Below, piece by piece: positions 2,158 to 7,901 of a stretch of DNA of 10,930 nt (its first letter is position 1; each line of letters opens with the position of its first letter). Source of the DNA: a virus (lineage: Duplodnaviria; Heunggongvirae; Uroviricota; Caudoviricetes); IMG/VR virus record IMGVR_UViG_2531839666_000021, positions 1 through 10,930 of that record. One strand, 5' to 3'. The notes beneath the pieces are model-generated. The model saw only the letters and a list, made by a program, of their open reading frames with translations, ran no database searches and had not been told where the DNA came from. The position numbers and the translations under genes were made by a program.

Positions 2158-3091
2158 ATGACTGATATTAACGATGTAATCAAGACCATTGATGAACTTA
2201 TTGATGGCGGCGTACTGACGCAGTATGCCATCGCCAGAGAGGCGGGAATTTCCGACGGCACATTATCGGCTTTCCGCAAGGGGAAATATAAAGGCGATAA
2301 CGCCGCTGTGGCTGCTTCCCTGCGTTCCTGGTATGAGAACTGGAATAAACAAAGCGCACTGCCGGAACCGCCGCAGTTTGTGGAAACGCAGACAGTTCAG
2401 GAGCTGCGCGCACTGTTTCAGGCGGTTCGCCTGATGGGCTGTATTAACGTCATTGTGGGCGTGCCGGGGGTAGGTAAAAACGGCCACCGCCCGTAATTAC
2501 TGCCAGGAGCAACCAAACACCTGGATGATCACCCTGTCACCCGCGCACTCCAGCGTCACGGAGTGTCTGCTGGAGCTGGCCGATGCGCTGGGGATTGATT
2601 ACACCCGCGCGAACAAAGGGGCATTATCCCGCGCCATCCGCCGTCGCCTGATGGGAACGCGTGGACTGGTGATTGTGGATGAGGCGGATCATCTTGGTAT
2701 TGACGGTCTGGAGCAACTCCGGGCAATTCAGGACGCCACGGGGATCGGGATGGTGCTTATTGGTAACCCGCGCGGATTGTTTAAAGGTGGACGCCGCGCC
2801 TTTGATGATTTATCGCGCCTGTTCAGCCGTCTTGCCCGTACAAAACAACTTCGCAAGGCCAAAAAGGCGGATGTGCTGGCCATTGCCAGGGCATGGGGTA
2901 TCAGTGGTGAGGCCGAGCTGGCCGTCATGCAGGCTATCGCTGAAAAGCCGGGAGCGTTACGCGTTCTGACACATACGCTTAACCAGGCGTGGCTCACCGC
3001 CAGCGGTGAAGGTGCGGCGCTGACAGAAAAACATATTAATGCGGCCTTTAAAGAGGTTTATACCAACCCTGAATTACTCTCACAGGTGTGA
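2158..3091 (+). CDS. MuB-like AAA+ ATPase (transposition target-DNA activator B); frameshifted at A5 run 2476-2480
   Basis: RBS GAGAGG 2144-2149, ATG 2158. Frame-1 ORF 2158-2496 ends GVPGVGK-NGHRP*; frame 2 continues KTATARNY...WMITLSP to stop at 3091. The joined product has Walker A GVPGVGKT and Walker B LVIVDEADHL and resembles MuB over its N-terminus and core. Confidence 0.85.
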
Positions 3092-3327: not shown

Positions 3328-3429
3328 ATGAATATGCAATCCTGCGGTAACAAAATGAATTTATTCGACTCCCTGAACAGCGCGCGCCGTCTGACCGAAC
3401 TTGCCGGTGCGGTACTGGAAACGCAGTAA
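3328..3429 (+). CDS. very small hypothetical ORF (33 aa)
   Basis: ATG 3328 preceded by GAGGTG 3318-3323; product MNMQSCGNKMNLFDSLNSARRLTELAGAVLETQ. May be part of a longer frameshifted gene together with the frame-2 reading 3377-3580. Confidence 0.3.
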   Translation: MNMQSCGNKMNLFDSLNSARRLTELAGAVLETQ

Positions 3430-3581
3430 GCGCTACCACACGTTTTGCACTGAAACCACGCCGCCGGTAGGCAACGTGCAGGGAACCGGTGAAATTGAAA
3501 TCACCATACAGACCAACGGCCTGCGCCGCCGTGTGAAGGCCACCCGCATCAGCGGCTGCACGGTTTACTGGGAGGTGTGAG

Positions 3582-3863
3582 GTGAAAAAAAATCTCATTG
3601 CATGGGCGTGGTCGAGTGGTCTTATTGAGTTTGGTTACGTCCTGCCGGAAGGTGCATTGCCGATAGTTGCCGGAAAGCCTGCCACGGTACGGCATGTGAT
3701 TGAGGTTATGGCGCGTCATGGACGTGATGAACAGGAGCAGTTACTGGTTCCGGGGATACCGGAAGCGGTGACGGAGGAAGAAGCCTTTAATGCCATGATT
3801 CGGTTCTGCCGTGAGGTCAGACGCCGGGTCAGTTATCCAAACAGAACGAGGACCAGAGGATGA
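3582..3863 (+). CDS. hypothetical protein (93 aa)
   Basis: GTG 3582 with GGAGG 3571-3575 at a 6-nt spacer; stop overlaps the next start (ATGA at 3860-3863). Confidence 0.55.
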   Translation: MKKNLIAWAWSSGLIEFGYVLPEGALPIVAGKPATVRHVIEVMARHGRDEQEQLLVPGIPEAVTEEEAFNAMIRFCREVRRRVSYPNRTRTRG

Positions 3864-4136: not shown

Positions 4137-4430
4137 ATGAGCAAAGTACGCGTTATTTTTGAATTTGAGCATGTTTCGCATGACGAAAAACCGGCAGGCA
4201 ATGACAGTGTTGAAGTGCATGAAAAGATTGGAGTGGATGTGAAAACAGAACGTGATACGGATAACAGGCCGACGTCACTCTGTGACGTTTATGCAAGCAT
4301 TCTCCAGTATCACAGTCCTGTAATTATTCAGTTTCTCTCAGCGGAATTTCAGGCATCTGTACAGGCTTTTGGGGCGGATGCCATCATTAAACGCCACCGC
4401 GTGCATAAAGCATCAGGCACACTGCAATAA
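4137..4430 (+). CDS. hypothetical protein (97 aa), paralog of 3860-4132
   Basis: ATG 4137 (the track ORF starts at 4110, but ATG 4137 follows the upstream stop at 4130-4132 and a G-rich RBS 4126-4129). N-terminus MSKVRVIFEFEH. Confidence 0.55.
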   Translation: MSKVRVIFEFEHVSHDEKPAGNDSVEVHEKIGVDVKTERDTDNRPTSLCDVYASILQYHSPVIIQFLSAEFQASVQAFGADAIIKRHRVHKASGTLQ

Positions 4431-4440
4431 GGAAAACAAA

Positions 4441-4970
4441 ATGGCTAAACGTGTTACAAAATTAAAGGCCGCAGCCGAGGCTGCACCGCAGACCCGTGAA
4501 GAGGTCAGCCGCGATATCCGCACCCTGGGCGATATTCAGCGAGAGGCGCTGCGCCTGGAAACAGCGATGAATGATGAAGTGGCAGAAATCACCGCCCGTT
4601 ATACGCCGCAGATTGAAAACCTTAAAAAGAAATCAAAGTGCTTTTTAAGGGGATTCAGGACTGGTGCAAAACCAACCGTGATGAGCTGACGAACGGCGGC
4701 AAAACCAAAACTGCCAATCTGACCACCGGAACGGTGTCATGGCGACTGGGGAATCCATCATGCAGCGTCAGTCGTGATGTGGAAGGTGTGATTGAAATGC
4801 TGCGCCGTATGGGGCTTGAGCGATTCATCCGCACGAAAGAGGAAGTGAACAAGGAAGCCGTCCTGGCGGAGCCGGATGCGGTGAAAGGCATTGCCGGTAT
4901 AAAGGTGAATAAAGGCGCTGAAAGTTTTTATGTCGAGCCTTTTGAACAGGACGCCGGACTGAATAAATAA
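4441..4970 (+). CDS. gam: host-nuclease inhibitor protein Gam (Mu Gam family); frameshifted near 4624-4629
   Basis: RBS AAGGA 4429-4433, ATG 4441. Frame-1 part MAKRVTKLKAAAEA...LRLETAMNDEVAEIT and frame-3 part (from 4626) KEIKVLFKGIQDWCKTNRDELTNGGKTKTANL...FIRTKEEVNKEA...PFEQDAGL both match the Mu Gam pattern as I recall it; the join requires one extra base in the A5/G run 4624-4629. Confidence 0.85.
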
Positions 4971-7215: not shown

Positions 7216-7427
7216 TAACGACATTATTTGTTGAATCAGACGAGCCTCTGGTATGTGCCGCCGGAATGTCGGTTTGTGGCGGAACGCTGACCGGTGTTTA
7301 TTTCGGGGATTTGCGCGGTTATCCCTGGCATTCACTGGATGACGCATTTCCGCCTGATATGGAGGCAGTCGTGCTGATTGTTCAGTATGGTGCAACAGGA
7401 ACTGCGCATCGGCCATATGGGGTATGA
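7212..7427 (+). CDS. hypothetical protein (71 aa as given; probably 103 aa, 7212-7521, if one G is removed from the G4 run at 7419-7422)
   Basis: ATG 7212 in an ATGA overlap with the upstream stop. Frame 1 continues from about 7417 to the stop at 7519-7521, which would create an ATGA overlap with ATG 7518. Confidence 0.45.
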   Translation: MITTLFVESDEPLVCAAGMSVCGGTLTGVYFGDLRGYPWHSLDDAFPPDMEAVVLIVQYGATGTAHRPYGV

Positions 7428-7493
7428 AGGCTTTTTTATTGATGAAGAAACCGGAGCCTGCCTTGAAGATGAGGACGGACAGGTGACGCACTG

Positions 7494-7901
7494 GTGCCAT
7501 ATTTCAGCTTTACCGGAATGACGGGAGGTGAATGCGTGAGAAGTTATATTGATAATGAAAAACTGAAGACAATCAGCGACTGTCTTAGCTTGCTGGCAAA
7601 AATAAAAGAAACCATTGAAGAGATTAAATTTCAGCTTGAATACGCACCCTGTGGTGATGATACATGGCGTAACTCTGCCAGAAAAGCACTGGCTGTCTTT
7701 CAGAAACAACGCCGGACTGTTGAATACCGCCTTGCTGTATTACGCCAGGAGGAAAAGGAAAGAAATATAAGATGTCACGAGCGCGTTAATAACTTCCTTG
7801 TTCGTGAATTAAAGAACGTGTGCCGGAGTCGGTATTTTTTGAGTGTGAGGCTGTTGCCCGTAGCAAAGCACTGGAAACTGATTAAACAGGCAGGTGAATG
7901 A
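7494..7901 (+). CDS. hypothetical protein, predicted coiled-coil-rich (122-135 aa depending on start)
   Basis: Frame-3 ORF; candidate starts GTG 7494 (SD AGGTGA 7481-7486), ATG 7518 (ATGA coupling if the upstream frameshift is corrected) or GTG 7536 (SD GGGAGG 7523-7528). AT-rich. Confidence 0.5.
   Translation: MPYFSFTGMTGGECVRSYIDNEKLKTISDCLSLLAKIKETIEEIKFQLEYAPCGDDTWRNSARKALAVFQKQRRTVEYRLAVLRQEEKERNIRCHERVNNFLVRELKNVCRSRYFLSVRLLPVAKHWKLIKQAGE

Follow-up and report, generated by a model that had tools for sequence, protein, structure and literature searches.

A split gam gene in a Mu-type prophage draft sequence: probable homopolymer miscall at an A-run

In the 10,930-nt stretch of prophage DNA analyzed here (the window), the gam gene is interrupted at a short run of adenines. 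This raises the question of whether the interruption is an error in the deposited sequence, a genuine mutation of the prophage, or a site at which recoding could still deliver a full-length protein. The whole locus lies at positions 4441–4970 on the plus strand, measures 530 nt as compared with 531 nt in intact relatives, and is predicted to encode a dsDNA-end-binding protein of the Mu Gam family. A likely gam ribosome-binding site, AAGGA, is located at 4429–4433 on the same strand, 7 nt upstream of the ATG at 4441.

Layout of the gam locus and its relation to Mu Gam

The N-terminal gam ORF (4441–4689, plus strand, frame 1) begins at the ATG at 4441 and comprises 82 codons and a stop codon (4687–4689). 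The frame-1 translation of 4441–4692 reads MAKRV...ITARYTPQIENLKKKSKCFLRGFRTGAKPTVMS, ending in a stop. Residues 1–63 of this ORF (MAKRVTKLKAAAEAAPQTREEVSRDIRTLGDIQREALRLETAMNDEVAEITARYTPQIENLKK) are authentic Gam sequence, in agreement with the relatives in our alignment, and are followed by 19 out-of-frame residues (KSKCFLRGFRTGAKPTVMS). The continuation of the gene is found in frame 3 from position 4626, where the translation starts with KEIKVLFKGIQDWCKTNRDELTNGGK... and finishes with the C-terminus FEQDAGLNK; this plus-strand segment (4626–4970) supplies Gam residues 63–176 and a TAA stop codon (4968–4970). In the program-made list of ORFs, the gene is given as two pieces, 4369–4689 and 4638–4970, the second starting from a GTG at 4638, and gam in the window thus amounts to an 82-codon and a 110-codon ORF.

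Around the break (4612–4634), the window reads ...GAA AAC CTT AAA AAG AAA TCA..., with the frameshift located at an A5 homopolymer (4624–4628, plus strand) that is followed by G4629. In a DNA alignment of the window with two intact relatives, the sole gap inside gam was placed at this run (CTTAAAAAG in the window vs CTTAAAAAAG), and the A6 of the relatives forms the codons AAA AAA for Lys62 and Lys63. Adding one A to the run of the window gives a 531-nt gene and a 176-aa Gam, as annotated in the E. coli relatives; as deposited, the window holds no uninterrupted frame for the whole Gam domain. The first-pass annotation of this DNA, which was made from the letters alone, had placed a split of gam at the A-run and proposed that one missing base would restore a Gam of about 176 aa. 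Both proposals were borne out, the split by the alignment of A5 in the window with A6 in intact relatives, and the restored length by the A6 relatives, which encode 176 aa spanning the whole PF07352 profile. The strings, frames, and coordinates that it reported, with 4441 in frame 1 and 4626 in frame 3, were also found to be correct.

Comparison with the PF07352 profile revealed that the intact 176-aa Gam of relative L003, which corresponds to the repaired window gene, matches profile positions 1–149 of 149 with a score of 142.2 bits (E=1.5e-41). When the two window pieces were compared separately, the N-terminal piece matched positions 1–50 (30.2 bits, with a cut-off of 28.3) and the C-terminal piece matched positions 50–149 (98.7 bits), so that the two abut exactly. 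The latter match confirms the earlier suggestion that frame 3 reads a Gam region, and the resemblance of the two pieces to Gam is not a matter of chance. In addition, the C-terminal part is identical to the intact Gam of L003 at 114 of 114 residues by tblastn. An alignment to the Mu Gam family, which the first-pass annotation had named as a check, returned an end-to-end match with Mu and D108 Gam at 57% identity (56.6–57.1% to Mu_3F6 and D108 gam over residues 1–174 by tblastn), and one solved structure of a putative Gam (PDB 2p2u, 'Gam, putative') was matched at E=4.4e-11. The gene also follows A, B, and kil within a transposable-phage early operon. By its sequence and gene position together, the window gene can be assigned to the Mu Gam family.

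The repaired window protein shares with Mu and D108 Gam an alignment over 174 of its 176 residues and the same early-operon position. Mu gam nevertheless differs from the window gene in that the identity is only 57% and in that its corresponding codons (ATT AAA ACC GAT) contain no A-run. Mu Gam, a Ku-like protein, binds to the ends of double-stranded DNA and guards phage DNA against RecBCD (PMC3809393), and homology suggests that the Sp18-type Gam may likewise bind DNA ends and protect against RecBCD. The gam gene of the Sp18 prophage of E. coli O157:H7 Sakai (ECs_4952, WP_001129553.1) is 97–98% identical to the window in DNA sequence, both across the gene and over the whole 10.9-kb region, with a shared gene order and with identical C-terminal 114 Gam residues. 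Sp18-like gam genes such as ECs_4952 are set apart from the window by their A6 run and unsplit ORF, and by lacking the 12–14 further private indels of the window described below.

Source draft and private indels of the window

The window covers the early and middle parts of a Mu-type prophage resembling Sp18, with the ATG of the MuA transposase gene at its first base. This gene is followed by MuB, a 73-aa ORF (hyp73), Kil, three small ORFs, gam, and about nine more ORFs, and then by GemA/gp16, Mor, a lysozyme, and an endopeptidase. An 801-nt probe around the site found matches of 90–98% identity in 233 complete-genome records of E. coli; the matches listed are annotated as 'host-nuclease inhibitor Gam family protein' and include Sakai Sp18. 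The whole window is collinear with such prophages, at up to 98.5% identity. For the comparisons that follow, we used a set of 23 relatives composed of complete genomes, contigs with the same Gam fragments, one viral contig, and seven contigs that carry a shared neighbor protein.

The broken fragments of the window are exact matches to GenBank proteins, and Escherichia coli 9.0111 is the only recorded source of these proteins. Exact matches were obtained for a 423-aa piece of MuA (EII22928.1), a 112-aa piece of MuB (EII22934.1, EC90111_0339), a piece of GemA (EII22921.1), Mor (EII22915.1), and EC90111_0352 (EII23000.1), while the 82-aa Gam piece, identical to the N-terminal ORF of the window, is recorded as EII23001.1, 'Gam-like protein [Escherichia coli 9.0111]'. 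Strain 9.0111 is an O128:H2 strain with the WGS prefix AEZZ from the J. Craig Venter Institute (JCVI) (PMC3359367). These protein matches place the window in the draft of this O128:H2 strain that JCVI produced in 2011. JCVI drafts of that period probably relied on pyrosequencing. A search by way of the strain-specific proteins found no independent assembly of strain 9.0111, these proteins being on record only in NCBI nr.

Compared with the 23 relatives, the window displays 6 private substitutions, 3 private insertions (at 2476, 3419, and 8982), and at least 9 private deletions (at 1101, 3439, 3452, 5636, 7392, 8696, 9195, 9239, and 10886). The indels at two further sites, 3437 and 7816, vary in their exact placement between the pairwise alignments but were private in all of them, and the private 1–2 bp indels besides that of gam number 12–14 overall. 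Their effects on genes, all on the plus strand, were mapped by tblastn. A change from C2 to C1 at 1101 splits MuA into the ORFs 1–1272 and 1164–2087, and a change from A4 to A5 at 2476 splits MuB into the ORFs 2158–2496 and 2525–3091. The changes at 3419, 3437, 3439, and 3452 (+A, −C, −A, and −A, respectively) break kil. The remaining indels were mapped to the Gp11-like gene (5636, 2 bp), hyp103 (7392, 2 bp), hyp116 (7816), hyp98 near its C-terminus (8696), GemA/gp16 (8982 and 9195), an intergenic position (9239), and the region of the lysC-like gene (10886). Altogether, about 9 of the 21 genes are broken in frame, namely gam together with MuA, MuB, kil, the Gp11-like gene, hyp103, hyp116, GemA, and hyp98, the last of them near its end. 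On either side of the breaks, the encoded protein is 95–100% identical to that of the intact relatives (tblastn), reaching 100% on both sides in MuB.

Pairwise comparison with the first two relatives revealed 16 gap openings in 10 kb, with the window being nearly always the odd one out, while the clean relatives differ among themselves by 41–69 substitutions and one indel, which lies in an intergenic A-run. Seven loci that share an exact 180-aa neighbor protein with the window are 98–98.5% identical to it; all seven carry A6, and none of the private window indels is shared by them. Private nonsense changes and large deletions are likewise absent from the window when it is compared with its relatives. 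The fraction of runs changed in length relative to L003 increases with the length of the run, from 0.02% for single nucleotides to 0.3%, 0.55%, and 1.8% for runs of 2, 3, and 4 nt, 8.3% for runs of 5 nt, and 21% for runs of 6 nt or more.

The four indels that fall within 34 bp of the kil-like gene (3419–3452) are suggestive of poor consensus quality at this site, more so than of four independent mutations. At the scale of the whole window, about two private indels per private substitution, in genes that display no relaxed selection, point to a poor consensus and not to prophage decay. Long-term decay of the entire prophage region was considered and rejected, as private indels (12–14) outnumber private substitutions (6) and the broken genes show no other difference from intact ones.

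The A5 allele in other assemblies and the origin of the break

Among complete-genome records, A5 was found in 1 of 232 and in-frame A6 in the other 231, and the intact Gam protein is present on at least 1000 contigs as compared with 1–11 for the fragments. The A5 run is shared by several haplotype groups, among which the distances are no smaller than those to A6 carriers: the window, L006, L015, L007, and L008 stand individually, L009/L010, L012, and L018 form one group, and L016 and L017 form another. Some of these occurrences (in L006, L015, L016, and L018) are clearly errors. A comparison of L006 (GCA_033723935.1, JAWVHP010000005.1) with Sakai Sp18 over 10.8 kb yielded 4 mismatches and 26 homopolymer indels; this public assembly, which is of an uncorrected long-read type, is to be handled with caution. 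Most prophage genes of L006 are called in pieces. L015 shows three undercalls in long A-runs relative to Sakai, L016 equals L017 but for four further undercalls, and L018 equals AR-0430 but for four further undercalls. An exact-pattern scan for further A5 carriers gave 0 matches in genome contigs and 0 in metagenome contigs; among viral contigs, it returned one short contig, L008, which itself has several homopolymer indels.

In other assemblies, A5 is probably genuine. The complete genome of E. coli O157 AR-0430 has A7 and A8 runs that agree with those of clean relatives, and its gam gene (F4V42_RS25740, NZ_CP044140.1) is annotated by PGAP as 'frameshifted'. In L012 and L017, no coding indel was seen besides that in gam. 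The occurrence of A5 in these three clean assemblies indicates a real allele in nature, at a frequency of roughly 0.4–1%. F4V42_RS25740 resembles the window in carrying the identical A6-to-A5 change at the same run, with the same split into 82 and 110 aa, but it lies on another haplotype, which differs from that of the window at 30 of the 1173 columns aligned around gam, and all of its neighboring genes in the 12-kb stretch shown are intact. The AR-0430 allele is probably genuine, whereas the window allele sits among many private indels. Two otherwise intact Sp18-like prophages carry gam lesions of other kinds, a CAG>TAG nonsense change at codon 57 in L011 (9803–10333) and a TT deletion immediately ahead of the A-run in L013 (9805–10333). 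Since broken-gam contigs, including L011 and L013, were found by way of the orphan C-terminal fragment, their counts say nothing about enrichment.

Taken together, the break in gam is probably a homopolymer-length miscall in an error-rich draft, which is a statistical call. The true gene would be an ordinary intact gam with A6, encoding a 176-aa Ku-like product that would bind dsDNA ends and would shield the phage DNA from RecBCD. One A would have been dropped from the run in the deposited sequence, as a dozen other short runs in 11 kb would have been lengthened or shortened, artificially splitting gam into the 82-codon and 110-codon ORFs. The indel itself, the intact condition of the gene in relatives, the surplus of private indels, and the strain of origin are shown by the data, and we infer from them both that sequencing or assembly caused the indels and which technology was used. 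In support of a miscall, private indels outnumber private substitutions, the probability of an indel rises with run length, and the broken genes are undiverged. The same A6-to-A5 change in the demonstrably error-laden L006 and L015 and the rarity of A5 among complete-genome records (1 of 232) were also counted in its favor, while the dependence on run length, which is expected of real slippage mutation as well, was counted against it. From the private changes of the window, we estimate the chance of a miscall at a run of 5–6 nt as roughly 5–10%, against a genuine A5 frequency of about 0.4–1%, and an artefact is therefore favored by roughly an order of magnitude. The pattern is similar to that of flow-based or long-read homopolymer errors, with single-base gains and losses in runs that become more frequent as runs lengthen, and with ORFs split without other divergence. 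It differs from classic long-run undercalling in that several indels fall in runs of 1–3 nt and two are 2-bp losses.

A genuine 1-nt deletion by replication slippage in the A6 run, leaving gam inactivated as an ordinary prophage pseudogene, is a doubtful alternative, for which the clean A5 assemblies provide the main argument, as AR-0430, L012, and L017 represent three different insertion sites or strains. The independent lesions of other kinds in L011 and L013 argue in the same direction, as does the second Mu-like copy of strain 9.0111, considered below. Gam is encoded in the Mu early region that is dispensable for phage growth, and the position of the break, at one third of a single Gam domain, means that neither fragment is expected to work. 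Long-term Gam production leads to poor viability of E. coli (PMC3809393), and loss of gam could thus be mildly favored. These points have to be set against the poor record of the window, with its 12–14 private indels vs 6 private substitutions, and against a miscall estimate that exceeds the population frequency of the real allele. Moreover, neither gam piece has accumulated an amino-acid change relative to intact relatives, and the extra nonsynonymous changes, stops, or larger deletions of a decaying pseudogene are not seen in the window. Less probable by far is a stronger version, in which the window truly carries A5 and Sp18-type gam has a natural hot spot of slippage in its A6 tract, through which resident Mu-like prophages turn Gam off repeatedly and perhaps in a reversible manner. 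According to this reading, leaky Gam would be costly to the host because Gam blocks RecBCD. The clean A5 assemblies (AR-0430, L012, and L017), the L011 and L013 lesions, and the presence of A5 in both copies of two strains are consistent with it.

The existence of two Mu-like copies bears on both a miscall and a real allele. The 9.0111 draft contains a second, different 82-aa Gam fragment (EII21171.1), and the DEC10A draft likewise has two 82-aa Gam fragments. The same slip thus appears twice in one assembly, once per prophage copy, for which systematic undercalling is a simpler explanation than parallel mutation. On the other hand, the 82-aa fragment of the second 9.0111 copy is the same as that of AR-0430, and strain 9.0111 may therefore truly carry one A5 copy. 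Gene conversion between the 9.0111 copies could conceivably have passed A5 to the window copy; possibly, the assembly recruited reads from the other prophage copy, which would itself be an artefact.

Recoding at the A-run would allow A5 to be retained without loss of Gam, in that a −1 ribosome slip on CUU-AAA-AAG (tetramer A_AAG), or RNA polymerase stutter, would still yield full-length Gam. This could provide a leak or a regulated low level of Gam expression, with the normal sequence ...NLKKEIKV.... As read from the sequence, the exact wild-type protein would result if the Lys tRNA in the A site moved back from AAG to AAA at 4626–4628. The most shift-prone tetramer in E. coli is A_AA.G, yet tetramers without a stimulator remain near background there, at 0.147% vs 0.112% (PMC4066793). 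The slippery heptamer X_XXZ_ZZN is missing; the in-frame heptamer is T_AAA_AAG, in which the P-site tRNA cannot re-pair, and only the A_AAG tetramer is present. The 71 nt downstream (4630–4700) fold at −13 kcal/mol, no better than shuffled sequences (mean −14.6, z = +0.60), and no upstream Shine-Dalgarno-like stimulator was noticed when the sequence was read by eye. The out-of-frame arrangement is also not conserved, given the in-frame A6 of 231 of the 232 complete-genome records, and the gam genes of Mu, Yersinia phage Tongde, and Pseudomonas phage DMS3 have no A-run at these codons. For efficient transcriptional slippage, five A are probably too short. With no heptamer, no stimulatory fold, no conservation, and tetramers near background, we rejected programmed −1 frameshifting and transcriptional slippage, and recoding at this run is very improbable.

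Since the gam slip is one of about 13–15 small indels private to the draft, the question it poses is one of sequence quality and not of Gam biology. The window stretch of the 9.0111 draft is unfit for inferring pseudogenes, prophage decay, or recoding, and the GenBank 'Gam-like protein' and similar 9.0111 fragments most likely result from the artificial splitting of intact genes. A real allele would be a further case of accessory-gene inactivation in a resident prophage. This is nothing new, since a RefSeq genome already has the identical allele under the annotation of a frameshifted pseudogene. New biology would follow only from a demonstration of recurrent, selected gam loss at the tract.

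Variation among Sp18-like prophages

Several features of the comparison concern the prophage family rather than the gam break. At 333–789, the window carries 21 substitutions that are mostly spaced in multiples of 3 and that were private only with respect to the first 16 relatives. When more relatives were included, the cluster was no longer private and proved to be a mosaic MuA N-terminal segment common to some other prophages, which indicates recombination among these phages. In the middle region, the window and most relatives keep a 103-aa and a 116-aa ORF at 7219–7885, whereas in Sakai Sp18 (L002) this segment is missing or replaced, with a 61-aa ORF in its place, representing a small module swap.

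Sp18-like Mu-type prophages were also found to lie inside other prophages. The left flank of the AR-0430 copy (NZ_CP044140.1) consists of terminase and capsid genes, and the records of two Stx-converting phages (LC727881.1 and LC727895.1) are annotated with an 'inserted Bacteriophage Mu-like phage'. As the insertion sites differ between strains, the Sp18-like element appears to be mobile.

Finally, three intergenic A-runs, at 2085–2090 (A6 or A7), 3579–3586 (A8 or A9), and 4433–4436 (A4 or A5), display natural length variation among otherwise clean relatives. The last of these follows the likely gam ribosome-binding site and is A4 in the window and some relatives and A5 in others. All three runs are located close upstream of the next start codon, that of MuB, of an 88-aa ORF, and of gam, respectively, and their lengths might tune the spacing of the ribosome-binding sites.
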